Assembly (NCBI GenBank): GCA_963753345.1
Contig: CAVWBU010000021.1
Span: forward strand, 64,001-128,000
DNA length: 64,000 bases
Origin: an uncultured Fibrobacterota bacterium
GTDB lineage: Bacteria; Fibrobacterota; Chitinivibrionia; Chitinivibrionales; FEN-1185
Reading direction: 5' to 3'
Of the stretch, positions 21,075 through 36,913 are shown piece after piece. Position numbers and translations under genes: made by a program. The notes under the pieces were generated by a model that saw only the letters and a program-made list of their open reading frames with translations, had not been told where the DNA came from and made no database searches. Positions within the stretch are counted from its first letter, which is position 1. The number at the start of each line of letters is the position of its first letter.

Positions 21075-21107
21075 CCCGTGTAGGTTGCACAACAATACGC
21101 GTGCAGT

Positions 21108-21142
21108 TCCCCCTCGACTTCCTGTCGAGGGGGATTTTTTTT
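21108..21142 (+). terminator. Rho-independent terminator
   Basis: TCCCCCTCGAC-TTCCT-GTCGAGGGGGA followed by T8. Confidence 0.85.
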
Positions 21143-21186
21143 ACCGAAGTCGAAGCATGAAACGTCTGCTTTGACAGGGGCGAATA

Positions 21187-21588
21187 TCAAGCGGGGGAAT
21201 TGATGCGCTGGCGGATAAAATCGCTGATGAGGTCCTCGGCGCTGTTGTCGATAGTGACAAACGAGAGGCCGAACGTGACCGTGGTCGCCTTTGACGATGT
21301 CGCGCCGCGCAGGAAATAGGCGATGGTGGCGGTCGCGGCGATGGCCTTTGGGGTACCGGGAAGCTGGCACGAGAATTCGATGAGTATGTACTGGTCCACC
21401 AGCGTCTCAACCTGCGCCTCCGGCATCGGCGCGGTGACCTTCACGCCGCCCATGCTTAGATCGGCTGTGGAGCCGTTAATCCAGTCTGTTAGCGGTTTCG
21501 AAGTCTTTTCCTCGATCAATCGGAACCGGGCCGGTGCAACAACCTCTATCCTGAAGAACTTCCTGCGCTCTGCATTCGTCATCGCCAT
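21187..21588 (-). CDS. PilZ-domain protein
   Basis: ERRKFFR and DLSMGG c-di-GMP-binding motifs. Confidence 0.88.
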   Translation of the reverse strand: MAMTNAERRKFFRIEVVAPARFRLIEEKTSKPLTDWINGSTADLSMGGVKVTAPMPEAQVETLVDQYILIEFSCQLPGTPKAIAATATIAYFLRGATSSKATTVTFGLSFVTIDNSAEDLISDFIRQRINSPA

Positions 21589-21690
21589 AGGTGGTGCCCT
21601 TCTAAAATTGAAAAGCTACTGTTTCTTTGATTATATGAAAATGGGCTCGTGAAGTCAAGCCGATACCATTTACCACTTCTTTACCGCGCT

Positions 21691-21810
21691 ATTGAAGAAC
21701 CCCGCCCCAAGTGGCGGGGATTCTTCCATAGCTAAGGAAATAGAATAACAAATATTCGCCCGCTAACCGCGCGCCAAGTCGCGGGGAATGCGCGGGCTGT
21801 GCTATTCAAA
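21691..21810 (-). mobile_element. ~120 bp MITE, diverged copy (copy 4)
   Basis: ATTGAAGAACCCCGC...GCGGGGATTCTTCC...ATTCGCCCGCTAACC...GGGGAATGCGC...TTCAA is colinear with the reverse complement of the other copies; its end supplies the last codons and stop of the 21802 gene. Confidence 0.75.
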
Positions 21811-22794
21811 CAGTTCCTTCATTACATCGCCTTTTGCATACGGGGTAGGAATGTTGAAGAGAGTTCCCACGGTTCGACAGATATCGATAAGGGTTCTTTC
21901 TTTATTGGAAACGAAATTCTTCTTGATCCCAGGCCCGATTGCCAGGAGAAAAAGTTCCGTGCACCCCCGGCACTTGTCCCCATAGCCGTGGTAATCGTCG
22001 GTGTGCCTTCCGTGGACGCTCATTACCAGAAAAACCGTCTTGTCCTTATAGACGTCCACTTTCTGAATCCGGTCCCAGAGATCCCAGGTAATCTGATCCA
22101 TAAGGATTATCGACTCGTAGTAGGCATTCAGGCCAGCGGCACCGCCGCATGCATCCTTCTGACCCTTCAATGGGCATTCGGCAGCAAGTTCCTTCTCCGG
22201 TGTGAGCGTGCCGCCCCCGCCATTAAGGCTGAGATACACGAAAGCAGGGTGTTTTTCCATGATATGGGGCAGCGCCTTCTCATAGATCGCGTTTTCGTTT
22301 TCATCCTCCTTCTTGCTGGACTCAAATACCGGCGCATACTTTGCCCCGAACTCGGCGTGATCACTGCAGGTTAGAATTTCGAATGTAGACTTGCATGAGG
22401 CGAAATAACAGGGATTGCCGGGTTCCTTCTTGGCGCTGTTCCAGTATTCAAACAGGGTCGGGAAGGCGGGACGAATGGTTTCGCTGAACGGATTTTTAAA
22501 AACATGCCACACGCCGGTAAGAAGGCTCATCTGCGCCGGAATGGGCAGGGTGAGTTCGCGATTCTCGAACTTGGTGCAGATTGTCCCCAGAGGCCGGAGT
22601 TTGTTCCAGATATTGTCGATGTACAGGTGGTTCTTGTCGCCGAACGCATCGGAGTAGCGCGCGCCGTTCATCACGATGATGAACAGATTTTTGGCCTGGG
22701 ATTTCGCCGGAATGGACTGGTCGCCGGCGTTCGACGGCATGGCCGTTACAAGGAACGTCGCAATGAAAGGGAATAGTATTTTGGAGGGGATCAT
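21802..22794 (-). CDS. Exported alkaline-phosphatase/sulfatase-superfamily protein (paralog 2)
   Basis: Signal peptide; KNLFIIVMNGARYSD, PTLFEY, YKDKT...SVHGRH, LAIGPGIK, IDICRTV. Confidence 0.65.
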   Translation of the reverse strand: MIPSKILFPFIATFLVTAMPSNAGDQSIPAKSQAKNLFIIVMNGARYSDAFGDKNHLYIDNIWNKLRPLGTICTKFENRELTLPIPAQMSLLTGVWHVFKNPFSETIRPAFPTLFEYWNSAKKEPGNPCYFASCKSTFEILTCSDHAEFGAKYAPVFESSKKEDENENAIYEKALPHIMEKHPAFVYLSLNGGGGTLTPEKELAAECPLKGQKDACGGAAGLNAYYESIILMDQITWDLWDRIQKVDVYKDKTVFLVMSVHGRHTDDYHGYGDKCRGCTELFLLAIGPGIKKNFVSNKERTLIDICRTVGTLFNIPTPYAKGDVMKELFE

Positions 22795-22796
22795 AT

Positions 22797-23729
22797 TTAT
22801 TTGTTCTTGGTGAATATGGCCACTTCGGTTATTCTGTTTCTTCCGTCCTTTACTTTCAAGAGAATATCCTTGGTGAGAATGGGCTTTTCCAGGTCGAAGG
22901 TGATATGGTCGTCATGCCCGCTGTTTTCCACCTTGCCGGCCCATTGCAGCCTGTCGAACTGGTCGGTATACCCTAGTTCGCAATTGAACATAACGTTCTT
23001 CTTTTTCAAGCTGTCCGCCACGGTATACACTGTTACCCTGTAGATATCCTGCAGTTTCGGCAAGGTAATTTCAGCCATGAGCAGGGCGACCGGTTTCGTC
23101 GTCACATCTCGCTCAAATATCTCGCCGAAATAGGTGGTGTTGTCAGCGGTGTCGGCTTCTGTTTTCCCGTCAATAATCTGTTTTATGCGCAGCTTGTCTG
23201 TCCTGTTGGTGGTATTGACCGTAATACAGTCTGCACTTCTCATATTGTCACAGCAGAGGCAATGTCCTCCGACCACGTATTCACCCCACCCGGTGGCGCG
23301 GATTTTTTTGTCCGTCAAAACGATATTCGTCAACCCCTTCATATCAACGCCGGGGTTCGTTGGAGGTGATTCTTTTTGAACGACGGTTTTGTTTTTTGAG
23401 AGCGAATCCCCTTGAGCCGGCATGCCTTCCTTTGCAGTCGAATCGCTCGCGGCCATGAGTTTTATTTTCGAAAGCGAATCCTCCTGGGCCGCGACCCCTG
23501 CACAGAAAAACCAAAGGAACACGGCAAACGAGGCCGCCGCGAGCAATGAGACGGGTGCCGCGGGCTTAAGCGTGCAACCAACCTCCGGCGATTGAATCCC
23601 ACAGCGAGCGCATTCCCCGAAGGTTGCTTCGGGGTTAGCGAGCGAATACAAATATTTCTTCTTCCATAGGGATGGAAGGATTCCCCGCAGCTTGCTGAGG
23701 GGACCTTCAATAAGTGAAAATGTTTTCAC
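22797..23729 (-). CDS. Exported hypothetical protein with in-frame MITE-derived N-terminal insert
   Basis: GTG start with AAGGA RBS immediately after the upstream stop; hydrophobic signal segment follows the insert; HCLCCD motif. Confidence 0.65.
   Translation of the reverse strand: MKTFSLIEGPLSKLRGILPSLWKKKYLYSLANPEATFGECARCGIQSPEVGCTLKPAAPVSLLAAASFAVFLWFFCAGVAAQEDSLSKIKLMAASDSTAKEGMPAQGDSLSKNKTVVQKESPPTNPGVDMKGLTNIVLTDKKIRATGWGEYVVGGHCLCCDNMRSADCITVNTTNRTDKLRIKQIIDGKTEADTADNTTYFGEIFERDVTTKPVALLMAEITLPKLQDIYRVTVYTVADSLKKKNVMFNCELGYTDQFDRLQWAGKVENSGHDDHITFDLEKPILTKDILLKVKDGRNRITEVAIFTKNK
23591..23711 (+). mobile_element. ~120 bp MITE, copy 2 (inside CDS, frame preserved)
   Basis: ATTGAA...TTCAAT, 121 nt span; translated as IEGPLSKLRGILPSLWKKKYLYSLANPEATFGECARCGIQ. 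Confidence 0.88.
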
Positions 23730-23731
23730 TA

Positions 23732-25195
23732 TTACAGTTCCTTTTTTTGAGATCCCCAGTCCTCCCAGGTCGCCCCATTATCCCTGCTTGTTTTTAAGAA
23801 TATCCTTGACCATTCGGTTTTGTCTTTCGGTACATCAAACCAGAATACATGCAATAATCCGGAAGCGGTCCTCGTTATGATGGGATTATTATGGCTTCCG
23901 ACATCCGAGGTAAGTTCCTTTTTTTCCTTGAGGACATTTCCTGCGGGATCGATCTCGCCGTAGGAGACAATCGACTCGCCTCCCAAAAAGCTTGCCCACG
24001 TAAAATGGAGATTGCCGTCTTTGTCAAACACCACCGACGGGCGTTTCGGGGACCTCTTCTCCAGAGGATAGAGGTTCCTCCCGGTGATGGGACATTTGTC
24101 CGTTGCGGGATCGAACCGGGCGTAAAAAATCTCGCCGAGCTGTATATTGCGCCTGTCAAGCCAGAAAAGGTAGGACAGGGAACCGTCCGAAAGCATTATG
24201 GGATTGTCAATTTCCTCTTTGGTTTCCTTGGCGACCTTGGTCTTCGATACAATCTGCTCGTCACCCCAGCTGCGGCCGTTGTCATTGCTCTTCCGAAGCA
24301 CAACGGAAGAAACCATATCCTCATTGCCCTTCCAGAGCCCGACCCCGTTCCACCCCAAACTCAGTCCCTTTTTATCCTCCTTGAAATCGGTCCACACCAC
24401 GACCAGTTCATTGCCGGTGCATGCAATGGCCGGCGGATAGCAATAGCATGAATGCTTGCCCACTTTTCCCAGAAGCATCTCTTTTTCCCAGGTTAAACCC
24501 CGGTCGCGGCTGGCCTTGAAATAAACCTTGTTTTCTACGTCCTGCCATATCAGATACACATTGTCTTCCTTGCAGGCAAGCAACGGATAACGCGCGCTGT
24601 TGGCATCGGTGATGAGGATGCGGTTCTTTTCCCATGTTGCTCCTCTGTCAAGACTTCGGGAGTAGTAGAGCTCCCCGTCCACCCTTTCGCCGTAATCCAC
24701 CCATGCCACGTGTACAATACCCGAATTCACTGCCATTGCAGGAGGATAACAATCCGCCTTTTCATTGCTTAACTTCCGGGCGCTTGTCCATTCTTTTCCC
24801 TCGTCGGCGCTCCGCCGGTAATAGATGCTTGCCGTCACTCCCTCCGTAACAACCCATGTCATGTGGATGTTATTTCCCTCCGAGACGACGGCGGGGTATC
24901 TGCAGTCTCCGGCCATGGAAATAAAGGCCGAGGCTGAGTCGGTTTTTTTCGCAGGTAGGGAGGCGGAGGCCGAATCGGCTCTTTTCATGGATGCCAAGGC
25001 TGAAGCGGAGTCTGCCGCCAGGCAGATGACGGCCAAGACCATGATCAGGAAACAGGTTTCAATCCCACAGCGAGCGGATTCCCCGAAGCTTGCTTCGGGG
25101 TTAGCGAGCGAATACAATTTATTCTTCTTCCCTAGGGATGGAAGGATTCCCCGCAGCTTGCTGCGGGGTCCTTCAATACAGGTCCGAAATCTCAT
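23732..25195 (-). CDS. Exported BNR/Asp-box (sialidase-like) beta-propeller protein with in-frame MITE insert
   Basis: SADEGKEW, SLDRGATW, SRDRGLTW, SNDNGRSW, SRDNGATW Asp-boxes; HSCYCYPP motif. Confidence 0.8.
   Translation of the reverse strand: MRFRTCIEGPRSKLRGILPSLGKKNKLYSLANPEASFGESARCGIETCFLIMVLAVICLAADSASALASMKRADSASASLPAKKTDSASAFISMAGDCRYPAVVSEGNNIHMTWVVTEGVTASIYYRRSADEGKEWTSARKLSNEKADCYPPAMAVNSGIVHVAWVDYGERVDGELYYSRSLDRGATWEKNRILITDANSARYPLLACKEDNVYLIWQDVENKVYFKASRDRGLTWEKEMLLGKVGKHSCYCYPPAIACTGNELVVVWTDFKEDKKGLSLGWNGVGLWKGNEDMVSSVVLRKSNDNGRSWGDEQIVSKTKVAKETKEEIDNPIMLSDGSLSYLFWLDRRNIQLGEIFYARFDPATDKCPITGRNLYPLEKRSPKRPSVVFDKDGNLHFTWASFLGGESIVSYGEIDPAGNVLKEKKELTSDVGSHNNPIITRTASGLLHVFWFDVPKDKTEWSRIFLKTSRDNGATWEDWGSQKKEL
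25057..25177 (+). mobile_element. ~120 bp MITE, copy 3 (inside CDS, frame preserved)
   Basis: 121 nt span; translated as IEGPRSKLRGILPSLGKKNKLYSLANPEASFGESARCGIE; ACAGGT direct repeat at 25052-25057 and 25178-25183. Confidence 0.88.
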
Positions 25196-26276
25196 TATTA
25201 ACCTCAGGCAATTTGCCGTTCTTATTAAGAAATCTTTCCAGCAACTCGTTCTCTCTCATGGTATACATACCATGCTCTTCGAATCGGAAGAAACGGGCCT
25301 TTTCCACGGATTTATATTTTTCGTGCAGGTCCTTGCGTATATTGTCGGCGCCTCGAATATAAATTATCTCCTGCTTTTCGTCGAACAGCTGGTAGACGCC
25401 ACTCACTTCGGGAACTTTTTTAATATTCTCTTCGGTTAATGCAAGGTCATCCTCCGGCGGCAGTATGACAGGCGCGAGCTTCAGTTCCGCTTTCTTTTTC
25501 CATGCCAGCCCTTTGTCCATCAGAGCGCCTGTAGGGCAAACTACAACGCAGGCGCCGCAGAACACGCACCCTGATTCCTTATGGGAAGGACCCAAAGTCC
25601 CCATAGCAAACTCGCCGTTATGAAAGGTGAAGCCAATGACCCGTTTTCCCTGCATCTTCTCGCACGCACGAACACAACGGGCGCATCCTATGCAGAGATT
25701 GCCGTTGTTGGAAAAAAAAGGTGTGTCCACGACAGGAACTTTCTTGAACACGTATTGCGAAACATCTTCTTTGATGGTAACATATTCACACACGCTCTGG
25801 AATTCACAATCATCGAATTTGGAACAGCATCGGCCTTGCATTTCTACGCCCATGGAGCACTCTTCCCGCTCACAGCCTTCCCTTTCTGCGCAAAGAAGAC
25901 ATGCATGAGGATGAAGAGAGAGTATTCGCTCCAGGTTATCTCTTCTTATTTCTTTTACCGCAGCGGTGTTTGAATAAATTACCATGCCATCTTCAACGAG
26001 CGTGGCGCAGGATGGAGAAGGACCTCTCCCCTTGATCTCGACGATGCAGATATTGCATCCATCATATGTTTGGTGATTTTCATTCCTGTCCGCGATGATT
26101 CCACCGTTCCGAAATACCCTGGCGTCGGCCTTTGTTCCCGGCCCTGGCGGTAAATCCGGATGATAACAAAGTCGGGGAATGTAGATCCCCGCTACATCTG
26201 CCGCCTCGATAATCGAAGCCCCCTCTTGGGTATGGACTTCATGATTATCAATTGATATGGTTATTTCTTTTCCCAC
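25173..26276 (-). CDS. NuoG-N-like 2Fe-2S/4Fe-4S protein with GIY-YIG-like C-terminal domain (BzdV-like, lacking flavin domain)
   Basis: YIPRLCYHP, GCNICIVE, HPHACLLC, CIGCARCVRAC, CVFCGACVVVCP; C-terminal VPEVSGVYQLFD...IIYI. Confidence 0.75.
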   Translation of the reverse strand: MGKEITISIDNHEVHTQEGASIIEAADVAGIYIPRLCYHPDLPPGPGTKADARVFRNGGIIADRNENHQTYDGCNICIVEIKGRGPSPSCATLVEDGMVIYSNTAAVKEIRRDNLERILSLHPHACLLCAEREGCEREECSMGVEMQGRCCSKFDDCEFQSVCEYVTIKEDVSQYVFKKVPVVDTPFFSNNGNLCIGCARCVRACEKMQGKRVIGFTFHNGEFAMGTLGPSHKESGCVFCGACVVVCPTGALMDKGLAWKKKAELKLAPVILPPEDDLALTEENIKKVPEVSGVYQLFDEKQEIIYIRGADNIRKDLHEKYKSVEKARFFRFEEHGMYTMRENELLERFLNKNGKLPEVNNEISDLY

Positions 26277-26545
26277 GTGGCGACAATAGCCCCTTTTTTA
26301 CAGGATTGCGCACAATGGATTTCTTTCTTCTGGTGACAGGAGGCGCAGGTATATTGGATTTTCTTCCGATGCTCCTCATGGACCACGGCCACCTGCTTAT
26401 CCTCTATATCAATCATCACCGTATCGATTTTCAGCGCATTTTGAGGACATTTCTCAATACAGATTTTACACGCATCGCATTTTTCGGCGTCGATGCTTAC
26501 ATAATACTTGCCCGAACCGTCTTGATATCCGTAATGAATAATCAT
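26261..26545 (-). CDS. 4Fe-4S ferredoxin (type I recall from bzd-type benzoyl-CoA reductase clusters)
   Basis: MIIHYGYQDGSGKYYVSIDAEKCDACKICIEKCP...YTCASC...CAQSC. Confidence 0.8.
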   Translation of the reverse strand: MIIHYGYQDGSGKYYVSIDAEKCDACKICIEKCPQNALKIDTVMIDIEDKQVAVVHEEHRKKIQYTCASCHQKKEIHCAQSCKKGAIVATWEKK

Positions 26546-26566
26546 ACGAACTACGCTTCCCTTTTG

Positions 26567-28291
26567 TTATGCTTTCTGTTCTTTTTCGTACAGCGCCTTG
26601 GAAAAGAGGGCAGCCCCGATGGCGCCTGCCGACTGAGGATCCAATTCACGGCTCTTATTCGGCAGCGGGAGGCAATTGAAACCATTGAGCTTTTCTATCC
26701 TCTTTACAATCCCCACATTCTTGGATTGACCGCCGGTGATGACAAAATCCGGTTCGATACCTACCTTGTTCAGCAATTCATGCATTCTTTGAGACATGGC
26801 ATTACAATACGATGCCAGTACCATTTCCTTGGTCCATCCCTTTCGCAAAAGCGATACCGCCTCGGACTTGGCAAAGACGACGCAGGTCGAACTCACCGGA
26901 GGCGGATCTTTCTCGACCATCAAAGAGTGCGCACCAACTTCCTGGATAGGCACGGATAAAAGGTCTGCAATTACTTCCATTCCTCTTCCCGTACCTGCCG
27001 CGCATTTATCATTCATAAGAAACGAGGTTATCTTGCCCTTTTCGTCAATACGGATGGCTTTGATATCCTGGCCGCCCACATCCAATACGGTCTTCACCGA
27101 AGGTCCCCAGATATATGACGCACCCCTTCCATGGCAGGCGATTTCCGTGATCGCCTTTTTTGCCATGGGGACATTTACTCTTCCATACCCTGTTCCCACG
27201 ATATAGTGGATATCTTTTTCCGTAAGTCCGGTGCCCTCCAAAGCCCAGTTCAATACGTTCCTTGCACTGTCGGGGCTGTTTGAACCTGTCCGCATTACGC
27301 TCCAGGTATAGAGCTCTCCATCGAGCATGACCGCGGCCTTGGAACCCACCGAACCAACATCAATCCCTGCGGTGATCACCTTGGCCTTTTTGGGATCCAT
27401 TCCCTCTACGGTTTTTCTGTATTCCGGCCATCTCCAATATTCTTTTTTTACCCCTTTTCCATTGTCACCATCACCAAGCTCTACCTTGGGCAACGAAATA
27501 ACACGGTCTTCAATATGCTCCAAGGACGAGGAAAGCGCTGCCCCCAATGCCGAAGCAAACTCCGGTTCTTCCGGAATGAACAGGTCTACCCCTAATTTTT
27601 TCTTAAGAGAACTGACCAGGCCAACGTCTTTGGCTACTCCTCCCATGAGTACAACATCAGGATTTATGCCTAACCTTCTGACCATGGAAGAGATTCTATC
27701 GGACATGGCGTCGTAGACAGCCCTCGCAATATCTTCTTTTGCAGTTTTTTGATGAATCAAGGTTACAACCTCAGATTCACCGAAGATAACACACTGGGCA
27801 TTCATGGGGATCGCCTTGTCCGACTTGAGCGAGAGTGCACCCATTTCTTCCAGCTTAAGCTCAAGCGCCCTGGTCATGGCCTCGATGAATGCACCTGCGC
27901 CCGCCGCGCAGCGGTCATTTGCCACGAAATCCGCTATATTCCCTTTCTCATCGCACTTGACCGCTCTCGCATCCTCTGCGCCCACATCGATCACAGTTCT
28001 CGCCTTTGGGAATAAATAGGTGCCTGCCTTGGCCATGGCGCGCACCATGCTCACCTTTCCCGTGGCATGCGAGGTCATTTCGGCGTTGACGCCGGTGGCA
28101 ATGATTTGTTTTATATCGGATTCCGCCAGGCCGCCCTGCGCTATGGCCTTGCGTATCGCATCACTGGCGGAGACCGACGGATCGAACCCGGTGGGTACCA
28201 CGCTCTTGGCAACGATTTTTCCATCATTGACAATCACTACCTTTACGTTTCTTGCACCTACATCGATTCCCGTGCTGATCATTGTAATCAA
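26567..28291 (-). CDS. Tandem-fused ASKHA ATP-dependent activase (BadF/BadG/BcrA/BcrD family; BzdP-like + BzdQ-like)
   Basis: Two modules: GIDVGA/DVGAED/NDRCAAG/CVIFGESE and GIDVGS/GTGYGR/DVGGQD/NDKCAAG/CVVFAKSE; EYWRWPE at start of module 2. Confidence 0.9.
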   Translation of the reverse strand: MITMISTGIDVGARNVKVVIVNDGKIVAKSVVPTGFDPSVSASDAIRKAIAQGGLAESDIKQIIATGVNAEMTSHATGKVSMVRAMAKAGTYLFPKARTVIDVGAEDARAVKCDEKGNIADFVANDRCAAGAGAFIEAMTRALELKLEEMGALSLKSDKAIPMNAQCVIFGESEVVTLIHQKTAKEDIARAVYDAMSDRISSMVRRLGINPDVVLMGGVAKDVGLVSSLKKKLGVDLFIPEEPEFASALGAALSSSLEHIEDRVISLPKVELGDGDNGKGVKKEYWRWPEYRKTVEGMDPKKAKVITAGIDVGSVGSKAAVMLDGELYTWSVMRTGSNSPDSARNVLNWALEGTGLTEKDIHYIVGTGYGRVNVPMAKKAITEIACHGRGASYIWGPSVKTVLDVGGQDIKAIRIDEKGKITSFLMNDKCAAGTGRGMEVIADLLSVPIQEVGAHSLMVEKDPPPVSSTCVVFAKSEAVSLLRKGWTKEMVLASYCNAMSQRMHELLNKVGIEPDFVITGGQSKNVGIVKRIEKLNGFNCLPLPNKSRELDPQSAGAIGAALFSKALYEKEQKA

Positions 28292-28303
28292 TGCTCCTTT
28301 GGA

Positions 28304-29641
28304 TTAATAGAGGTCATCGGTTGAAGTTTTTGTCGCCAGCATCTCAAGAAAGGCCTCGATTCGGGTCTTCATCTGACCGCTGTCTTCGCGGCTGTATTCC
28401 GTATCGAGGTAGTATATCGGAATGTGCTCTTTTTCGAACAGACGCTTGAGGCGCAGATATTCCATGGCATACAGATGACAACCGCGTATGACATGATAGA
28501 TCACGCCGCTGATCTTGTAGTCCTTTACCAGGGTTTGCAGCTTGTCGATCCTGTCCTGGTTCCCGTCTTCCGAGGTGAAACAGGGGCAGGTGCACGGCAG
28601 AATATATCGTTCCGCAATTGCCTTCAGCATATCACCGGCTGACCCTTCATCAACCCCTACGGGATCGTAGAATATCCGGTCGCCGGAGCAGAATTCATCC
28701 GCAACAATCAAACCCTGCGGTTTTGATTCTTCAATCAGATTGGGAATTTTCCAGCAATCCGGCCAAATCATCGGAGAACCGGTGAGGAGAATCCTTGGTG
28801 TGTCCAGCGGAGCAACGTATGCCTTTTCGGCAGCTTTCTTTTCGAGTTCGTCACAAAGCTGGTTGGTCTTTTCCGTCCATCTCGCAAGATCGTCAAAATA
28901 GCTCATCTGGTCCACCAGCATCGCATCCCTTCCGGAAATGAGAGGAGCGCCTTTCCGTAAATCCAGTAATCGGCGAGATGCCGCTGTTGCCGCCAGGGTC
29001 GTTTTTATTGCAGTACGCATTGCTTTTCTGGTTATCGATTTGCCCGTGAGCTTTTCTATCTTTTCCTTTACCTCTTTTACCTGGTCCAGCCAATAGCGTT
29101 TCGCCTGCGGAGTATCCTTTACTCTGGGCACATTCATCTCCCATACGGGAAACGCATCGGTCAAAATCTCGCACACCTTTGTCTTTCCGTCGCACGTATT
29201 CGGGGAGATGATGACGTCACACATTTCAAGATAGGGATACAGATCCGCCATTGCCAGACCGATCATGGATCTGACGACGGGGCAGACCTCCACCGGAACG
29301 ATTCTATCGCCTATCTTGCTCGGCGTGTAGAATCCCGAATCAATGCGAACAGGAATGGCGCCTGCGGCCAGGATAAGTTCAACGGGCGCCAACATGCAGG
29401 CAAAGCCGATCACCTTGCCTCCCTGCGCTTTAAAATCACGGATTTCTTTTTCCCTTTGGCCGAAAAAATCCGCCGCCTGGTCGAAATATTCCATGGCTTT
29501 GGGCCGGTTCGGGACAAGTCTCATCTTCTCAATATTTTCAGCGACGGTCTTCTGAACACCGGCCTTGAATGCCTTTTGCAGCTCGTCCTTCTCTTCTGGG
29601 GCAAGCGTAGGAAGATATTTTGGATCGTTGTTGGTTTTCAC
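28304..29641 (-). CDS. 2-hydroxyacyl-CoA-dehydratase-family protein, double-cubane-cluster (DCCP)-like
   Basis: PNRPKAMEYFD, FACM, EVCP, TCDGK, YFDD, LCDELE, PRILLTG, EFCSG, CTCPCFT, GCH, GQMKTRIEAFLEM; Cys sets in both halves. Confidence 0.8.
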   Translation of the reverse strand: MKTNNDPKYLPTLAPEEKDELQKAFKAGVQKTVAENIEKMRLVPNRPKAMEYFDQAADFFGQREKEIRDFKAQGGKVIGFACMLAPVELILAAGAIPVRIDSGFYTPSKIGDRIVPVEVCPVVRSMIGLAMADLYPYLEMCDVIISPNTCDGKTKVCEILTDAFPVWEMNVPRVKDTPQAKRYWLDQVKEVKEKIEKLTGKSITRKAMRTAIKTTLAATAASRRLLDLRKGAPLISGRDAMLVDQMSYFDDLARWTEKTNQLCDELEKKAAEKAYVAPLDTPRILLTGSPMIWPDCWKIPNLIEESKPQGLIVADEFCSGDRIFYDPVGVDEGSAGDMLKAIAERYILPCTCPCFTSEDGNQDRIDKLQTLVKDYKISGVIYHVIRGCHLYAMEYLRLKRLFEKEHIPIYYLDTEYSREDSGQMKTRIEAFLEMLATKTSTDDLY

Positions 29642-30640
29642 CGAGACTTCTCCTTTTGCAATTTAGGTACTTTCACCGCACTTGACTGTAAAAATCTCTT
29701 GTATTTTGACCGAGCGATCGGAAACTTAAAGAGACCGACTTTCAATGCGTCTTTCTCCGGGCACATTTCAACACAGCGGAAACATAAGGTACAATCAGAG
29801 GAGGCTATCTTCTCTTTCTCTTTTTCTTCGTACACCTCCGTGACCTGTACGGGGCAGCTCCTTTGGCAAACACCGCACTTGGTACAGCGTTTCCCTTCCT
29901 TGCGCAGTGAAAGAAAAGAAAACCTGTTGAATAATCCGAGGACAGCCCCCATGGGACAAAGCCTGCACCACATCCTTCGTATAAAAGAGGTGGTGAGCAG
30001 ATAAAAAATAAAAACGCCAATTGCCAGGTAGGACATCACGGTGGACAAGGAACTGATGGTATCCACCGTCAACATTTCCTTGAATCTTCCTTCAACAAAA
30101 GGGGAAGATTTGCTTGCTCGGGCAGATTTGACAAAAAGGGGTAATGAGGTCGGCTTGATAGGCCTTTAAGAAAAAATGCGGAATACCAATGCCCACAGCG
30201 ATACAAACGAGGGCAATTACAAAGAACCATTTAACAAATACTGATGACAGTTTCAAATTATCCGATAAGTTGTAATAGCCTATTCTCAGATATTTTCGAA
30301 TGCGGATGAACAAATCCTGTACGAATCCCAACGGGCAGACCCAGGAGCACCATGCGCGCCCAAAGATCAAGCCGAGAATTATCAAGAGTAGTAAAGGGGC
30401 GAGCAAATCGATATAATGGGTCTTCCACCCTGCGGCAAACCCCTCCTGCAGGGAACGTAAAAAGCATTGGGCTATCCGGTGATTTGTATAGTAACAGCTC
30501 AACGTGGGAATTACCAGGGTGATGCTTTTCCACGCGATCTCTCTTACCCCCAAATAGCCAAGGTAAACAATAAGGAAGAAAAAGATTACCTGAGCAGCAA
30601 ATTTCAACCTTGTTATTTTAAGCATATCAGTTACCGCCAT
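29638..30640 (-). pseudogene. Membrane-bound 4Fe-4S protein (NapH/MauN/YccM-like) split by a +1 frameshift (real or assembly error)
   Basis: GRAWCSWVCPLG and FCQICP in the first ORF; RMWCRLCPMG, CTKCGVCQRSCP and CTLCFRCVEMCP in the second. Removing one base of CCCCTTTT (~30097-30104) gives IFPFVEGRFKEMLT. Confidence 0.85.
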
Positions 30641-31553
30641 TCAGGAAGAAATCATCTATCATTGTTGCATCCTTATCCACCCGCGGGGTGGGGAAGCCGA
30701 GAATCTTGCCCACCGTCGGGCAGACATTAATCTGTCGCCATTTGTTTTCCGTCGAATAATTTTTCTTGATATCGGGACCTAACGCCACTATAACCAGATA
30801 CCTTTTACATTCGTCATCACAATCCTGCTGCAAAAGAATATCGCCATGGTCATTGAGAAAGAAAAAATCCGTTTTATCCTTGTAGACCGGATCCGCCTGG
30901 ACCGCCATCCAGATTCTGTATATGTGATCATCCATCTCCTTGAGCTGCCTCCGATAGCGGACCATATCTTCCGGCACCTGCTTCTTGTTAAAGCTGTGTG
31001 CGCCGCCCAGAATGACAAAGACAAGCTGGGGATGGTTCGCTTTCATATATGCGGTGAGTTTGGTATAGAGTTCTTCATCATTGTTTTTTTCTTTTGTGAA
31101 TTCGGCGGTGGCGCCAAAATTTTCACCATACTCTTCACTGTTGCTGTACGTCAGGAAATTAAGCTCTTGCTTGCTGGTGATGAAATAGCATGATTTCTTG
31201 TCCTTCCCCAGGCCTTTACGAAAGTACTCAAATATAGTAGGTTGATCCGGAATGTCATCCTGGTTTGAACGCCGGAGATCTTTCCAGGAACCGGTGATTA
31301 TGGCCAGATGAACCAGGGCCATGTAGGAAGGATTCCCATAGAAGGTGACACAGCGACTGGCGTTCGGAACCATGTCGTTCCAGAGATGAGGCACATATTG
31401 GTGGGTCTTGTCGCCAAAGGATTCATCATGCCGGAATTGGTCGCCGACTACAATAAAAACATTCTTCGCTTTAAACTCGCCATATGCATAATTTCCATTT
31501 ATAAGAAGAAAAGGCAATAGTAAAAGTAAAAAGCGTTTGATCGTCACCCTCAT
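30627..31553 (-). CDS. Exported alkaline-phosphatase/sulfatase-superfamily protein (paralog 1)
   Basis: Signal peptide; KNVFIVVGDQFRHDE, PTIFEY, YKDKT...LNDHG, ALGPDIK, INVCPTV. Confidence 0.65.
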   Translation of the reverse strand: MRVTIKRFLLLLLPFLLINGNYAYGEFKAKNVFIVVGDQFRHDESFGDKTHQYVPHLWNDMVPNASRCVTFYGNPSYMALVHLAIITGSWKDLRRSNQDDIPDQPTIFEYFRKGLGKDKKSCYFITSKQELNFLTYSNSEEYGENFGATAEFTKEKNNDEELYTKLTAYMKANHPQLVFVILGGAHSFNKKQVPEDMVRYRRQLKEMDDHIYRIWMAVQADPVYKDKTDFFFLNDHGDILLQQDCDDECKRYLVIVALGPDIKKNYSTENKWRQINVCPTVGKILGFPTPRVDKDATMIDDFFLNGGN

Positions 31554-32410
31554 TTCTTTCCCTTCTGCTGTTGATTGGTTTTTACTGCCAGCGGGATGAA
31601 TGCCGGTCTATGATATTTTTCTATGCCGAACTCGCCGATGTATTTCTGAACGTCGGGAGAAGTCAAAAAGCCGATGAACTGCATCGCCGTCACATAATTC
31701 GCTTTTGGGAATCTCTCAGGATTTATCGCCATGACGTCGTAATTCGTGAACAGTTTCGTGGTATCCTCCACCATGACCGCCAGATCGATCGTCTCCAGCA
31801 TCTCTTTGTAAGAAGCCCATTGGGAAATAGTGTAGGCCTTTTTCCTCGCAGCAATGTTCAATGTCTCCGAGGTCCCTACCTTGGTCTTGATATACCAGTC
31901 ACCCTCGGGGTTTATTTTGGCCATCTTCCACATCCTCATTTCCAAACCGTGGGTGCCGGATGAATCCGCCCGTGAACAAAAGTTTGATTTTGTTGCAGCG
32001 ATCCGTTGTAGAGCTTTCAGTATATCCTTCATGCCTTTAATCTTTGCCGGATCATCCGCCGGTCCTACAAGGACAAAGTCGGAATAACAAACCGGGCGGA
32101 GATTTACCGCAAATCCATCTTTTATAAATTGTGCTTCCTCGTCAGGCTCATGCCCCATCATGACATCAATATCCTCGATACCTTCATGGTCTTTTATAAA
32201 ATGAATGGCATCCCCTGTGCACAGGGAGATTACCTTGACGGGTATCTTGTATTGCGTTTCAAACAGCTTGGCCAATCCATTGGCCAAACCGGGAGAAACG
32301 CAGGTCACGGGGAAAATGGCCTTAAGCTCCCGTGGAGCATTCTCCTGTGCCTGTACGCTCTGCGGCCATACGAGGAATAAACAAAAAAGAATCGAGAACA
32401 TTATTTTCAC
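31550..32410 (-). CDS. TupA-like periplasmic substrate-binding protein (variant)
   Basis: DFVLVGPADDPAKIKG, SRADSSGTH, W...WY, NYDVMAINPE; canonical TTTS motif is replaced. Confidence 0.8.
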   Translation of the reverse strand: MKIMFSILFCLFLVWPQSVQAQENAPRELKAIFPVTCVSPGLANGLAKLFETQYKIPVKVISLCTGDAIHFIKDHEGIEDIDVMMGHEPDEEAQFIKDGFAVNLRPVCYSDFVLVGPADDPAKIKGMKDILKALQRIAATKSNFCSRADSSGTHGLEMRMWKMAKINPEGDWYIKTKVGTSETLNIAARKKAYTISQWASYKEMLETIDLAVMVEDTTKLFTNYDVMAINPERFPKANYVTAMQFIGFLTSPDVQKYIGEFGIEKYHRPAFIPLAVKTNQQQKGKK

Positions 32411-32434
32411 AGCCGAACTTTCCTTCTTTAACTC

Positions 32435-34828
32435 TTAGAATCCGCAATGGACCTGGAGGAATAAATAGTATGAATTGATATTGTCTGTTATCTCGAATCC
32501 CCCGTACGGATTACTGTATGGATCAGGAGCCATCGGATCATTGTATGGATGATGAACCGTTCCCGAGGAATTGTAAAAAACGTAATTATATAAGGAGACG
32601 CCCGTCGTCAATATCACATTTAGGCCGGCATACCTGTCCTTAATCATTAATTGAAAGGTTCCATTATTATGATAATAGTTCTGTAGAGGATCAAAGAAGT
32701 CATTGAACAGTTCGAATTGATAGCCAATGGAAATCGAAGTTTTGGGGGTGAACTTCCAGTCGTATACCAAATAGGCGTTATTTGCCATGGTATTATGATG
32801 ATATTTATAGTCCATAAGTGAGTCCGATCTGGGGCCGTAATCGTCCCATTCATAGATGTTTTTATATTTGGGGGTTAAAAACATGTCTTTTAAAAATGGG
32901 AGAGCCCAGATATATTCGCATTTGTTTACGAGGACCAACGAAGAAATGTTTTCTTCGGTGTAGTTGAACTCGAGGTGAGGAAGATGTTTGGTAAATTCCC
33001 ATTTACCTCTCGTGGTGAAATTGAAGCCGCGGTTCCTGTAAATGTCATACTGCGCAACCAACATTTCGACCAGCGCATCGCGGTAATCCAACGGATCCAC
33101 GTGGGTAGTGTAATTCACAGCATCCGTATGCAGGTTGAGATTATAGCCCACGGTGGAGGTCAGCCAATGGTTGGGGATGTTGTCCTGCACGTAGCGGAGA
33201 TAATTTTTAAGGGTGAGCTTTTTGTCATCCGCGAAATTATGCTGGTACCCAATCAAGGAGTACAGGTCGATGTCCTTTTCGGGGGCATATATATAACCGA
33301 CCGGTTGCCCATTCTGATACGTCATTTGAAAGGAATTCATCTCACTTCTCTCGGCTATCCCGCCCAGGGCAAGATTAAGTTTTGGAAGGAAATCATATTC
33401 GCCATACAGATGTAAACCATCGAGCCCCTTGCTCACCTGACGTTCCATGTTAAAACTGATATCGGCAGAATCCTGCACAACATCATCAATCCATTTGCCG
33501 GACCTGTCATCCTGCCGCAGGTATCGTTCGCCGGAAAGATAGTAACCGGGCACGTGAGGATAATCCGGATACGCGTCGTCTTCTACTTCATCCGGAACTC
33601 CATTGTTGTTTCGGTCGAAATACACGTCCGACTTGGGAGGATCACAATCGTAGCTCAAAAAATCTTCTTCCCAATCATATATGCCATTTTTGTTCTTATC
33701 ATATTTTATTGGGATCACCCCGTCCCAATCACCTCCCCCGTACGGAAGGAAATTTACCTTGCCTTCTTGGCCGTTTTCCGGAAATTGGTCCTTATCGTCG
33801 TTGTCTTCAACAAGTTGATACAGGTATTTTTGGCTTGACAGGTCTCCTTGGGGAAAAGCGGGGTCGTAAAACGTCGTCTTATAATTGTGATTGACAATAT
33901 ACCCTTCGCCGCCCAATTTCAATTTGTCGAAAATGTTGCCCACGGCACTAAGGTCAACTATATTTCCCGGCTTCGGTCTGAAATTACCGTCAATCACCTC
34001 CTGGCTTTGGGCCCATTCGACGTTCGCCTTCAGCCTTGGAAGGTTACAATCGGCGTTAAGCCCGTAGATTTGCAGCGCGGTCGGGGTATTTGGAAAGAGA
34101 GAGTCGTACGTGCCGTCCAGAGAGCCGGACAGGCCGTTCACTTGATTGCGCTCATCTATCAAGGTACCCCCGATATCAAAAAGGCCCTTGATATTCTTAT
34201 TCGCGTGAATTCCATGGAGCCAGTCTGCGCCGGGCATTATTTCGTAATCCTCCATGTACATTCCGTAAATTCCCGTATTTGAGATTCGTGAATTGATGAT
34301 TGACAGCGAGTTCATCCCGTAGAGCAAATCAAAGAATATGTCGATGCGCGCGCCGCAAAACAAGCTCTGATTAAACGTATAGGGCGTAAATTTGGTTGCC
34401 ACCCTGTCGCCAACCAGGGCCATGATCCCGCGGTTATCGGCCATGTCGCCGACCTGCACCATGCCATTCAACCACTTTTTCAGAATGGGAGAGAGAGCGA
34501 TGTCGGATTGCTCGCGATTCGAATTTCCGTTCATCGACATATCAAAAAGATTGAATCCTTCGACGAGATGATTGCCGAAAATGTCATAGTAGTTCCATTC
34601 GGGGACTTCGCCAACCCAGGTAGGGTTCAAATAGGAACCCTTCTGGGCGTAATTGGCATAGTATTCGGGAGGCATCTCCAAGGATAAATTGTTGAAGCCG
34701 TCGGGTATGTAGTTTAATGCCGGCGCCTCGGCCGCAAAAAAAAGGAGCGCCGTTGAAAACAGGCAAGCCCGATTGAGCGTCTTCATGGCGCGCAAGCTCC
34801 TTGACTGGTGCACATAGGCAATGCTCAT
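32435..34828 (-). CDS. Probable outer-membrane beta-barrel protein with Asp-rich Ca-binding-like insert
   Basis: Signal peptide, aromatic-rich amphipathic strands, C-terminal YLFLQVHCGF, DNDDKDQFP/DKNKNGIYD/DRNNNGVPD repeats; start may be MKTLN further downstream. Confidence 0.65.
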   Translation of the reverse strand: MSIAYVHQSRSLRAMKTLNRACLFSTALLFFAAEAPALNYIPDGFNNLSLEMPPEYYANYAQKGSYLNPTWVGEVPEWNYYDIFGNHLVEGFNLFDMSMNGNSNREQSDIALSPILKKWLNGMVQVGDMADNRGIMALVGDRVATKFTPYTFNQSLFCGARIDIFFDLLYGMNSLSIINSRISNTGIYGMYMEDYEIMPGADWLHGIHANKNIKGLFDIGGTLIDERNQVNGLSGSLDGTYDSLFPNTPTALQIYGLNADCNLPRLKANVEWAQSQEVIDGNFRPKPGNIVDLSAVGNIFDKLKLGGEGYIVNHNYKTTFYDPAFPQGDLSSQKYLYQLVEDNDDKDQFPENGQEGKVNFLPYGGGDWDGVIPIKYDKNKNGIYDWEEDFLSYDCDPPKSDVYFDRNNNGVPDEVEDDAYPDYPHVPGYYLSGERYLRQDDRSGKWIDDVVQDSADISFNMERQVSKGLDGLHLYGEYDFLPKLNLALGGIAERSEMNSFQMTYQNGQPVGYIYAPEKDIDLYSLIGYQHNFADDKKLTLKNYLRYVQDNIPNHWLTSTVGYNLNLHTDAVNYTTHVDPLDYRDALVEMLVAQYDIYRNRGFNFTTRGKWEFTKHLPHLEFNYTEENISSLVLVNKCEYIWALPFLKDMFLTPKYKNIYEWDDYGPRSDSLMDYKYHHNTMANNAYLVYDWKFTPKTSISIGYQFELFNDFFDPLQNYYHNNGTFQLMIKDRYAGLNVILTTGVSLYNYVFYNSSGTVHHPYNDPMAPDPYSNPYGGFEITDNINSYYLFLQVHCGF

Positions 34829-35412
34829 TATTGCCCTCCTGCAGCGTGGGGATCGGCCAGTTGTATGGTGTCAATCGGGTATTGGAGGAGCGTATCCAAT
34901 TTGTGCAGGGAGGTATCAGGATCAGGCGTGAGTTGAATCATCGTCACAAAGAGCCGGGTGCTTGCGGCGAGTATCACCCCGGATGCTTGAGAAACGGCTA
35001 TTGGCACAGTGTCAAGGAATCCGCCGACGCTGTCGAAGGCAAGGTGCACGATACCCGGTACGCTGCCGGTATGTGTCTCGACCGCCAAATCAAGGTAGTT
35101 TTGCGTGATATCCACAGGGGACCCTGGGTTAGTGGTGATGGTTCCATAGAGGGTTCGTCCCGTGAATGTTGAATCATGCCCGTTAAAAATGATGCTCGCG
35201 CGTGTGCCTCCTCCAGAGGGGAAGTCGTATACCCATTCTACCGTATCGGCGTAGAGATGAAAGGTATACGGAGAGAAATTGTATTGTGTGTCGATAGGGG
35301 CGACTACTGTTTCCATCCTCCCATTGAGGACATCAAGGGATACACTGGTACTGCACTGCATTATCAACACAACGATGCTTACCAGCAACGTCACCATGGT
35401 TACTTGCCGCAT
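34828..35412 (-). CDS. Hypothetical lipoprotein
   Basis: MRQ-hydrophobic-IMQC lipobox-like; stop overlaps the barrel gene start. Confidence 0.6.
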   Translation of the reverse strand: MRQVTMVTLLVSIVVLIMQCSTSVSLDVLNGRMETVVAPIDTQYNFSPYTFHLYADTVEWVYDFPSGGGTRASIIFNGHDSTFTGRTLYGTITTNPGSPVDITQNYLDLAVETHTGSVPGIVHLAFDSVGGFLDTVPIAVSQASGVILAASTRLFVTMIQLTPDPDTSLHKLDTLLQYPIDTIQLADPHAAGGQ

Positions 35413-35435: not shown

Positions 35436-35490
35436 ATTGAATAGCACAGCCCGCTCAAACCCCGCGCCATTTGGAGCGGGGTTCTCCAAT
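35436..35490 (+). mobile_element. Internally deleted MITE (55 bp, copy 5)
   Basis: ATTGAATAGCACAGCCCGC...GCGGGGTTCTCCAAT matches both ends of copy 4 in inverted orientation. Confidence 0.7.
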
Positions 35491-35788: not shown

Positions 35789-36913
35789 ATGAAGAACACC
35801 ATTTCCCGCCGGTCATTCGTCAAGCAGGTCGGCGCAGCCGGCATTACCGCGGGCATCGCGGGCATTTCCATCAAGGCTGCGGAAACAAAACCCGTAGCGG
35901 ACCCGGCAACGGAAAAAATCCGCAATTACAAACCCACAATGGCGTATCGGACCATCGGAACCACAGGCATTGCCGCCTCGGTGTTCTCTCTTGGCACCGG
36001 CAATGTCAAGGCCGATATTCTTTCCGCGGCCATCGATAGGGGGGTGAATTTCATTCACACGTCTTTTCATTACATGAACGGTCAATCCCTCGGGGTGGTG
36101 GGCAAAGCGATCAGTGGAAAAACCGACAAGGTGTACATCGCGCTCAAAGACGATTTCCCCTCCATCGAAGAAGCGTTGAAAGCGCTCGGGGTGACCTCGG
36201 TTGACTTCCTGATGTTCAACCGGCACAATGCCGGCGACCTGAAAAAGGAGTTGCCCGCGATCAAGGAGAAATTCATTGCGTGGCGCGACAAGGGGCTTGT
36301 CAAATTCGCAGGCCTCACGGTTCACAAGGACACCGCGGCCGTGCTTGACGTGGCGGCCGACGCCGGTTTCTTCTCCTGCGTCATGCCCGCCTATCCGCCA
36401 AACCAGGTGGAGGAACTCGCCGCCCAGCGCGACAAATTGCGCCAGAAGAACATCTCGCTTCTTGCAATGAAATCAAAGGGGGAATTGAACGCGGATGATT
36501 ACGTGGCTCACATCCCGAAGGTCCTTGCCGATAAAACCGTCAGCACGATCATAAAAGGGGTGGGCTCGCTTGACGAACTAAAGGCATGGTCTGCAGCCGC
36601 GGTATCAGCAAGAACCGGCCTGCTTCACCGTATCATGAATGGGTATGGAACGGCTGCCTACAGCGGCTGCAACATGTGCGGACAGTGTGAGCAGGAATGC
36701 CCGGCGGGAATCGCCACGTCAGACATCATGCGATGCATCAGGTATTATCACGACAGTGAGCGCCTGCCGCAGATGGCTGCCTCGGAATTCCGCGCTATGG
36801 GCCTTGCGCAAGCGGCGCTGCGATGCGATGGCTGCGGCAAATGCGAAGCGGCATGCCCGCAGGGCTTGGGGATCATTGAGGACATCAAGCGCGCGCAGAG
36901 CACGCTCGCATGA
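35789..36913 (+). CDS. Aldo/keto reductase with Tat-like signal and C-terminal 4Fe-4S dicluster
   Basis: ISRRSFVK; YRTIGTTG...SLGT, GVNFIHTS...Y; CNMCGQCEQECP and CDGCGKCEAACP. Confidence 0.85.
   Translation: MKNTISRRSFVKQVGAAGITAGIAGISIKAAETKPVADPATEKIRNYKPTMAYRTIGTTGIAASVFSLGTGNVKADILSAAIDRGVNFIHTSFHYMNGQSLGVVGKAISGKTDKVYIALKDDFPSIEEALKALGVTSVDFLMFNRHNAGDLKKELPAIKEKFIAWRDKGLVKFAGLTVHKDTAAVLDVAADAGFFSCVMPAYPPNQVEELAAQRDKLRQKNISLLAMKSKGELNADDYVAHIPKVLADKTVSTIIKGVGSLDELKAWSAAAVSARTGLLHRIMNGYGTAAYSGCNMCGQCEQECPAGIATSDIMRCIRYYHDSERLPQMAASEFRAMGLAQAALRCDGCGKCEAACPQGLGIIEDIKRAQSTLA

Follow-up and report, generated by a model that had tools for sequence, protein, structure and literature searches.

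A six-Cys double-cubane-class reductase among envelope genes of a Fibrobacterota bacterium: a conserved cluster that may reduce its target at or across the inner membrane

What is a double-cubane reductase for? The available sections of two papers, both from the group behind the solved structure, give the physiological function of the double-cubane proteins (DCCPs) as not known, as of 2020 (PMC7317905) and as of 2022 (PMC9351452). The question is raised again by a 64,000-nt window of a contig from an uncultured Fibrobacterota bacterium, in which a gene of the DCCP class stands in a minus-strand operon among genes for envelope proteins. The window is the whole stretch analysed, and positions refer to it; G000 is the genome itself and G062 to G066 are its congeners. 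Genes were placed from the listing of open reading frames (ORFs) together with Pfam and NCBIfam profile searches. An earlier note on this DNA had proposed that uptake and periplasmic processing genes are coupled here to a low-potential reductase. That interpretation is partly supported: from homology and gene context, we hold with moderate confidence that capture in the envelope and reduction by a DCCP engine, at or across the membrane, would be the work of one conserved system. The cluster gives a testable clue to the role of the double-cubane enzyme class.

The 13 ORFs between 35412 and 21802, all on the minus strand, amount to 12 genes, not to the 11 counted at first, and the ORF listing and the profile searches confirmed the order that had been given for them. 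One gene, that of the NapH-like protein, is indeed split by a frameshift. The genes of the operon, from first to last, are as follows.

34828-35412, minus: putative lipoprotein of 194 aa with a hydrophobic N-terminus, the first gene; no Pfam or NCBIfam family, orthologues in loci L002 and L027 58-63% identical
32435-34828, minus: putative outer-membrane barrel of 797 aa with an Asp-rich repeat region and the C-terminal end ...HCGF; no Pfam or NCBIfam family
31550-32410, minus: TupA-like periplasmic binding protein, accessory (PBP_like_2, Pfam)
30627-31553, minus: AlkP-308, an exported protein of predicted alkaline-phosphatase fold, 308 aa, catalytic Thr lost (family profile against PDB; motif columns)
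29638-30640, minus: NapH-like four-helix Fe-S membrane protein (Fer4_5; Pfam/NCBIfam), split into 30092-30640 and 29638-30075
28304-29641, minus: six-Cys double-cubane-class protein (DCCP-like), 445 aa (HGD-D, 329.9 bits, Pfam; NF040772)
26567-28291, minus: fused two-domain BzdP/Q-type ATPase (electron-activating 'archerase'), 574 aa (two BcrAD_BadFG halves)
26261-26545, minus: ferredoxin of the 2x[4Fe-4S] type, 94 aa (Pfam)
25173-26276, minus: NuoG-N-terminal-like Fe-S protein, 367 aa, with a C-terminal DUF7508 (Fer2_4 + NADH-G_4Fe-4S_3 + Fer4 + DUF7508)
23732-25051, minus: exported Asp-box (BNR) beta-propeller (BNR_2); the ORF extends to 25195 through a repeat
22797-23590, minus: exported protein with a low-complexity linker and a Cys-rich CBM32/discoidin-like beta-sandwich, here the CBM32-like protein (310-aa ORF 22797-23729; no Pfam family)
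21802-22794, minus: AlkP-330, an exported protein of predicted alkaline-phosphatase fold, 330 aa, catalytic Thr lost, with a Cys-bearing insertion at the former metal site (weak Sulfatase match)

The first question is which kind of reductase the 445-aa protein is. In NCBIfam it scores 344.2 bits with NF040772 (double_cubane), against 110.9 with BzdN, 99.2 with HadC and 67.4 with BcrC. The first of these scores is 5.8 bits under the cut-off of 350, yet 233 above that of the next family (BzdN), and the orthologues of the window type score 338.6-349 bits. In a PDB search, DCCP (7YYL/6ENO) was matched with 272 bits over residues 43-435, BzdN with 105 and HadC (3O3M_B) with 57.5. The N-terminal region of the protein is retained, being aligned to 6ENO from residue 36 on, and the six motifs that the earlier note had quoted are all present in the alignment to the DCCP of 6ENO/7YYL. 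The Cys residues noticed in both halves of the protein prove to include all six cluster ligands: Cys 82, 120, 150, 318, 352 and 388 align with six Cys of a seven-Cys motif, six of whose residues are described as cluster ligands in the accessible part of PMC7317905. Three of the spacers between the ligand Cys (29, 167 and 33) fit the motif as it is given in that part, and the last is 35 through a 3-residue insertion. When 17 DCCP-class proteins were aligned, five ligand Cys were invariant (17/17), and the sixth was found in 16/16 readable rows.

The seventh, non-ligand Cys (Cys94 in the Carboxydothermus hydrogenoformans DCCP) is replaced by Asp101 in the window protein; it is lost in the Bathyarchaeia clade too and retained in other clades. 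A six-Cys 'class III' DCCP has been described, in what is available of PMC7317905, as fused to its reductase, whereas the window DCCP is not fused. The DCCP/DCCP-R pair of C. hydrogenoformans (6ENO, 7YYL) resembles the window pair in its single chain with two homologous halves, six aligned ligand Cys, common motifs and an ASKHA-type ATPase partner encoded adjacent; it differs in that its DCCP keeps the seventh Cys, where the window protein has Asp101 and falls 5.8 bits short of the family cut-off, and in that the window cluster adds a ferredoxin, a NuoG-like wire, a NapH-like protein and the envelope gene set. By scores, alignment and tree, the protein neither groups with ordinary dehydratase subunits nor lacks the six aligned Cys, which were the outcomes named beforehand as refuting the idea, and its predicted membership of the DCCP class, rather than of the ordinary dehydratase or benzoyl-CoA reductase (BCR) subunits, is supported.

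In a tree of 19 rows, none of them dropped, the window clade (100/100) is sister to a Thermoproteota/Bathyarchaeia clade (100/99). The canonical Fibrobacterota DCCPs form a separate clade, and BzdN and BzdO, both on long branches, also fall elsewhere; the rooting is by midpoint only. Two insertions common to the window and archaeal DCCPs (WPDxWKIPNLIEESKPQG and SxDGN) back this archaeal link. The six-Cys operons of Bathyarchaeia and Thermoproteota (L003-L006, L011) are similar in their DCCP, which is 57-59% identical, shares the insertions and has lost the seventh Cys, and in their order of NapH-like protein, DCCP, two ATPase units and ferredoxin. However, their ATPase is encoded by two genes rather than by one fused gene, and they carry other surface proteins (CARDB) without the set of barrel, AlkP-fold, BNR and CBM32-like proteins. 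Within the phylum, a DCCP-family match was found in 27 of 296 genomes and the window type (339-349 bits) in G000, G062 and G064 only; L002 is the closest genome locus, with a DCCP 93% identical. The canonical Fibrobacterota loci (L032-L036, L042) hold a DCCP and one activase, without a NapH-like gene. Three Fibrobacterota genes of the DCCP family, with 395-409 bits, have one in-frame TGA each (G069:C76:12493-13575, G071:C13:19813-20904 and G072:C452:4546-5634), which may encode selenocysteine. Another Fibrobacterota genome holds in L039 (G046:C64), at 6202-9135, a second and very divergent set of NapH-like, DCCP-like and activase genes, which groups in the tree with Desulfovibrionales and Lentisphaerae versions.

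What supplies this reductase with electrons? The partner that had been called a tandem activase does have two BcrAD_BadFG halves, and it is more exactly a fused BzdP/Q-type ATPase. With BzdQ it scores 499 bits over 2 stretches (cut-off 380.2, passed by the C-terminal half). It is 55% identical, over its full length, to the split BzdP + BzdQ of L040, a locus in another Fibrobacterota genome (G048:C14:29500-49499) that holds a complete Bzd-type BCR cluster with BzdN, O, P and Q, ferredoxin, a NuoG::GltD fusion, Had, Oah, hydratases and ETF. The ATPase has two Cys per half (128/167 and 430/470), spaced in each half as expected for a predicted bridging [4Fe-4S] cluster; the counterparts in DCCP-R are C115/C152 in the available text of PMC9351452. 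The same text describes DCCP-R as a homodimer, whereas the window ATPase is a fusion of two unlike halves. The ferredoxin is retained after the ATPase in L003-L006, and both it and the NuoG-like protein have homologues in L040. In that locus the NuoG-like part forms a fusion with a GltD-like NAD(P)H module, which the window protein does not have.

Such a triad of ATPase, ferredoxin and NuoG-like protein, for which a true Bzd cluster has homologous counterparts, might suggest a variant of BCR or of 2-hydroxyacyl-CoA dehydratase serving the fermentation of aromatic compounds or amino acids; the HGD-D match of 329.9 bits (Pfam) and the passing of the BzdQ cut-off by the C-terminal ATPase half would agree with it. 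We consider this highly improbable. The NCBIfam scores for the catalytic subunits are far below the cut-offs, both for the Bzd type (BzdN 110.9 against 453.8, BzdO 23.8 against 448.6) and for the dehydratase (HadC 99.2 against 700, HadB 19.6 against 750); where the Bzd-type class I enzyme of L040 has a catalytic pair, BzdN+BzdO, the window has one DCCP-class chain, and its ORF listing holds no second subunit gene of the alpha or O type. The absence of CoA-pathway genes that had been noticed for this cluster was confirmed: there is no CoA ligase, hydratase, Had or Oah gene, all of which L040 carries, and there are no genes for dearomatisation or beta-oxidation. The tree, moreover, sets BzdN and BzdO outside. 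For the clade of the window protein, too, the scores speak against a BCR reading. By homology, the product is shown to be of one kind, an ATP-driven DCCP-class reductase with a predicted ferredoxin chain of its own.

How might this engine be linked to the membrane? The gene directly before that of the DCCP encodes the NapH-like protein. A single surplus T, in a C4T4 run near 30094-30100, accounts for its frameshift, as judged against two intact orthologues, and a 2977-nt contig of run X1, which has 9 other differences, lacks that T. Since neither this contig nor the orthologues have it, the frameshift is an assembly error or a strain variant. The intact protein, as found in L002, L027 and the X1 contig, has four predicted helices, with one Cys pair in loop 1 and a second in loop 3. 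NapH of E. coli (b2204) is alike in its four predicted helices, its two cytoplasmic CxxxCP/CxxCP motifs and its two C-terminal [4Fe-4S] motifs, but is without the two Cys pairs, which are conserved in the window-type protein and present in 9 of 10 DCCP-linked NapH-like proteins. Also unlike a NapH system, the window locus scores under the TIGR02163 (NapH) cut-off of 213.05 (32.3 and 67.6 bits for the two halves), and no NapG, NapA, NapB or NapC gene was found in the cluster with Pfam and NCBIfam. If the Fe-S tail is cytoplasmic, as we take that of NapH to be, the loops with the Cys pairs are predicted to face outward.

The pairing of these two genes is widespread. The NapH-like gene directly precedes the DCCP gene in 8 of 9 distant loci (two of them near-duplicates), with an ATPase gene nearby in 7 of the 9. 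A DsbD_2 gene adjoins the pair in L006, L009, L010 and L011, and in L003, L006, L008, L009, L010 and L039 the gene before the NapH-like one encodes a product with an N-terminal hydrophobic segment and, often, a C-terminal anchor. The core of NapH-like protein, DCCP and ATPase thus recurs in archaea and other phyla beside other exported partners. No paper tying DCCP to NapH-like or envelope proteins was found in the literature searched.

An important question remains as to whether the envelope genes of the window belong with this core. One explanation would be that two unrelated sets, a surface set that scavenges glycans or esters and a horizontally acquired reductase cassette, share a transcript by accident. 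The archaeal grouping of the DCCP would be expected from this, as would the paralogue of the barrel gene beside GH2/GH3 genes and the occurrence, in 14 further Fibrobacterota genomes, of AlkP-like homologues that are not near a DCCP gene. The envelope families are also absent from the distant NapH-DCCP loci: profiles of the CBM32-like and AlkP proteins, and single-sequence searches with the other envelope proteins, gave no match in 18 distant DCCP loci, bar one weak AlkP-like match in L010 (E 1.6e-4), and AlkP-308 has no similarity to the protein upstream of the NapH-like one in L008. The envelope families are, as far as such searches tell, lineage-specific and not found beside the NapH-DCCP modules of other phyla.

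Against an accidental association, envelope genes lie to either side of the redox genes, with stop and start codons that overlap, and the gene order is repeated in G062 and G064. Metagenome contigs were scanned with the alignment of CBM32-like homologues alone, which gave 20 loci. All 13 of those that reach at least 2.5 kb upstream have reductase-side genes (NuoG-like, ferredoxin, ATPase or DCCP) in the cluster, the other 7 being too short to tell; two of the 13, L044 and L045, seem to be the G062 and G064 genomes met a second time. Five of the metagenome loci include the DCCP gene itself, and the rest are cut inside the reductase-side genes. Among the loci that are long enough, no set of CBM32-like, BNR and AlkP-330 genes was found without reductase genes nearby. 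The most distant locus, L060 (33-50% identity), is rearranged and still holds both sets on one strand: ATPase, ferredoxin, NuoG-like protein (of identical architecture), barrel, AlkP-308-like, NapH-like and two BNR genes, together with fn3/CarboxypepD_reg proteins, the CBM32-like domain, DsbD_2 and an AlkP-330-like protein. Finally, the two sets are jointly present or jointly absent in the 6 genomes of the genus: AlkP-like, barrel, CBM32-like, DCCP, fn3 and DsbD_2 genes all occur in G000, G062 and G064, and none was found in G063 (73% complete), G065 or G066, the absence of DsbD_2 being judged at E<=1e-10. The synteny of envelope and reductase genes, proposed beforehand as the point on which the reading could fail, thus held wherever it could be checked, and we regard an association by accident as improbable. 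Conserved context shows that the reductase works with the NapH-like protein, DsbD_2 and the envelope protein set.

Four more genes lie beyond the end of the operon.

21187-21588, minus: PilZ-domain protein, a variable neighbour (directly after the AlkP-330 gene in L046; elsewhere in L047 and L049)
19659-21074, plus: fn3 / SdrD_B / CarboxypepD_reg surface protein, 471 aa, which co-varies with the cluster
18466-19221, minus: Fib_succ_major-domain protein, a conserved neighbour (domain match and conserved neighbourhood)
17833-18450, minus: DsbD_2 membrane protein, which co-varies with the cluster and is a conserved neighbour

The fn3 gene adjoins the cluster in L002, L027, L044-L047, L049 and L053, and domains homologous to those of its product, like DsbD_2, are inside the L060 operon. 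Because of the co-variation of DsbD_2 and fn3 and of the conserved adjacency, the cluster extends to 17833. It thus reaches past the limits first drawn for it and, on the reading that we hold with moderate confidence, forms one conserved envelope-spanning system of about 16 genes (17833-35412).

What, then, do the envelope proteins do? The barrel has orthologues 59-83% identical (33% in L060). A paralogue 77% identical (G000:C19:155684-158047; L029 9679-12102) stands by itself, with GH3, GH2, pectate-lyase-like and FGE-sulfatase genes as neighbours, and the barrel orthologue of G062 (G062:C37:242611-244965) has one in-frame TAG. The TupA-like binder scores 131.9 bits with the TupA equivalog, far under the cut-off of 400, and matches PDB 3LR1 with E 8.5e-44. 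The sequence SRxDxSGTH is retained, while STTTSTQDSGL of 3LR1 is aligned to IFPVTCVSPGL, so that the first of the motif regions that we take to bind the anion in TupA is not retained. No TupB/TupC-type permease or ATPase gene was found in the cluster (Pfam/NCBIfam). In the 6 distinct versions that cover the junction, the binder is intact in 2, a remnant in 1 (L049) and absent in 3 (L002, L047 and L060); the remnant, of 58 residues between the barrel and AlkP-308 genes (L049 2068-2241), appears to show the gene decaying in one lineage. The binder is dispensable. Uptake, as first proposed, is thus left with a binder intact in only 2 of 6 versions and with no inner-membrane importer encoded.

The proposal of periplasmic processing fared similarly. 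AlkP-308 alone found nothing in the PDB at E<=1, and a family profile was needed; made from 17 members, it matched sulfatases, phosphonate monoester hydrolase, iPGM, phosphopentomutase and NPP (best E 4.7e-11), and homologues of the AlkP-fold proteins pass the Pfam families Sulfatase, Metalloenzyme and Phosphodiest. The superfamily fold thus stood, but the catalytic nucleophile and the full set of metal ligands are missing. The Thr four residues before the conserved His, which from NPP structures we take to be the nucleophile, is present in 8/8 canonical relatives and replaced by Met in 4/4 AlkP-308-type and by Pro in 9/9 AlkP-330-type proteins. Of the D..GH and DHGRH motifs only parts survive and several metal ligands are gone, so that nucleophile and ligands fail in all of 13/13 operon-type orthologues, and processing by these proteins is not supported. 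The AlkP-330 type has instead an insertion with two conserved Cys beside CxxC.

The BNR propeller has orthologues at 49-89%, and its gene is duplicated in L051, L056 and L060. The CBM32-like protein has 94 homologues at 45-91% identity and five invariant or nearly invariant Cys (94, 96, 97, 105 and 187). Its model (mean pLDDT 79.3) consists of a beta-sandwich and a disordered linker, and Foldseek matches the predicted sandwich to CBM32 and F5/8 type C domains (E ~4e-6, TM by target 0.5-0.66). Outside the cytoplasm there are, in sum, binding-type proteins and no recognisable enzymes, several of them with conserved Cys clusters. Neither the window nor L060 was found, with Pfam and NCBIfam, to encode an importer or a cytoplasmic follow-on enzyme. 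As the non-redox genes are all envelope genes (bar PilZ), as none looks catalytic, as several carry conserved Cys clusters, and as there is no importer or follow-on enzyme, the working end of the system would lie at or beyond the inner membrane.

The model of the earlier note places that end in the cytoplasm: a solute would cross the barrel, be handled in the periplasm, enter the cytoplasm and be reduced in the DCCP site, the NapH-like protein only anchoring or feeding the engine. The DCCP of C. hydrogenoformans does reduce small molecules through narrow channels, in the available parts of PMC7317905 and PMC9351452. The window DCCP keeps the N-terminal region (6ENO residue 36 onward), and a TupA-like binder is present. 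DsbD_2, which presumably is related to transporter families, could act as the transporter. However, neither permease nor ABC genes occur in the cluster, 4 of the 6 distinct versions have a decayed binder or none, a cytoplasmic enzyme that could use the product is not encoded, and the soluble ferredoxin and the NuoG-like wire already supply the electron input. We therefore regard reduction in the cytoplasm as possible but doubtful.

Reduction at or across the membrane, which we prefer, would proceed as follows. The ferredoxin and the NuoG-N-like Fe-S protein would, by homology, pass electrons to the fused BzdP/Q-type ATPase, and ATP hydrolysis would drive them onto the [8Fe-9S] site of the six-Cys DCCP-class protein. 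This engine would be tied, as the conserved adjacency suggests, to the NapH-like Fe-S protein and to the DsbD_2 membrane protein. The envelope proteins would capture a thiol-loving, hard-to-reduce species, whether a chalcogen, a metal or metalloid, or a metal-bearing compound, and the engine would give very-low-potential electrons at or through the inner membrane, reducing the captured species for assimilation. CoA esters would not be acted on.

Another possibility is reductive activation or repair, in which an exported protein would have its metal or thiol centre held reduced and active by the engine; NosR is thought to do so for nitrous-oxide reductase. The conserved Cys clusters of the exported CBM32-like and AlkP-330 proteins, the membrane protein of NapH/NosR type and the recurrence of the same core beside lineage-specific exported partners in other phyla would all be consistent with it. 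Yet the exported proteins are unlike any known redox enzyme, the AlkP-fold proteins seem to have no hydrolytic activity left, and there is no flavin-binding outer domain such as NosR has. This makes a repair function unlikely.

Several observations weigh against reduction at or across the membrane. Every function assigned in the cluster is a prediction from homology or context. The NapH-like gene is frameshifted in the present assembly, and the predicted outward topology of its loops is derived from a hydropathy count and from NapH topology as we assume it to be. The Fe-S proteins of the cluster are without an export signal; no CXXCH haem motif was seen on reading the translations, and no periplasmic electron carrier is encoded. 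The envelope families also occur elsewhere in Fibrobacterota in glycan-type contexts. SelD is present in 8/8 genomes of the family, with or without the cluster, so that it does not discriminate a selenium lead. Finally, the DCCP with its own substrate channels, as reported in the accessible portion of PMC7317905, would fit a cytoplasmic substrate as well.

What could the target be? It is likely to be thiophilic and hard to reduce. A more far-reaching version, which we think unlikely, is that the DCCP engine would push ultra-low-potential electrons out via the outward-facing Cys pairs of the NapH-like protein and DsbD_2 to Cys-rich surface proteins, mobilising an otherwise inaccessible element, for example elemental or organic selenium as selenide. 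The selenium/selenide couple has a very negative potential. If true, the double-cubane class would thereby gain its first physiological role, and ATP-boosted reduction would be seen for the first time outside the cytoplasm. The Haft preprint (10.1101/2022.07.06.499078), in its available part, links DCCP to SelD statistically. The SAO loci with adjacent double-cubane proteins that it describes, as far as that part goes, are similar to the window cluster in that a DCCP-class enzyme is linked by context to uptake-type and Cys/Sec-rich proteins, and a thiophilic or organometallic substrate is proposed there for the SAO system. In contrast, no sao-type genes, ABC transporter or MerB-like protein were found in the window with Pfam and NCBIfam, and the SAO-DCCP link is, in the same part of 10.1101/2022.07.06.499078, statistical and variable in position, whereas the window genes form one operon. 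A DCCP fixed among envelope genes, in a frame that survives rearrangement, directs the search towards something that is handled at the cell surface and away from a cytoplasmic metabolite, and the cluster names proteins for ligand tests: the Cys-rich CBM32-like protein, the Cys-remodelled AlkP-330 protein and the NapH-like protein with its extra Cys loops.

The junctions in the operon had been described as overlapping or shorter than 25 nt. This holds apart from those between NuoG-like and BNR genes and between BNR and CBM32-like genes, each of which contains a 121-nt repeat. The copies in and around the operon, none with a strand assigned, are these.

35437-35490: partial inverted copy upstream of the first gene (repeat pairs I2, I3)
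25058-25178: 121-nt dispersed copy, NuoG-like/BNR junction
23592-23712: 121-nt dispersed copy, BNR/CBM32-like junction
21691-21809: inverted copy just downstream of the last operon gene (repeat pairs I1-I3)

The repeat, of about 120 nt, has 43 matches in genome G000 and carries two GC-rich hairpins (CCCCGCAGCAAGCTGCGGGG type); copies lie inside the operon and at both its ends. The BNR and CBM32-like ORFs share odd N-termini because both read through the repeat, which inflates the ORFs with a pseudo-N-terminus. In the orthologous locus L027 both junctions are tight, and the repeat is absent from those junctions in G064.

Upstream of the operon lies one further gene.

35789-36913, plus: divergently oriented gene of 374 aa with a weak aldo/keto reductase match and 4Fe-4S motifs (adjoins the operon in G062, 92% conserved; not found in G064)

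The G+C of the operon is somewhat below that of its flanks, which was not taken as evidence of transfer. Public runs with a matching stretch are labelled as peat, freshwater sediment and soil metagenomes. Contigs from RNA libraries (runs X19 and X20), 92-95% alike, cover pieces of 8 of the 12 genes, and two of them cross gene junctions; such contigs do not prove transcription and are a weak hint of it, and nothing follows from the parts that they leave uncovered. No Rfam family matched in the window at gathering thresholds (0 matches), and no riboswitch was seen.

The suggestion of a Mo/W-related substrate is weakened, since the Mo/W-type genes of the window are confined to 1-5400, about 12 kb or more past the last cluster gene. 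That region holds the end of a FecCD permease, an FmdE-domain protein, TauE, a ModD-like QRPTase and a TOBE+HTH (ModE-like) regulator. The sigma-54 promoter pattern has 74 matches in the window where 73 are expected, and upstream of the operon none of them convinces. At 12191-12205 (minus strand) the -24/-12 consensus of sigma-54 is matched perfectly, next to a PAS/sigma-54 activator gene (12364-13803) and the gene of a 754-aa Sortilin/BNR-like protein (13851-16115).

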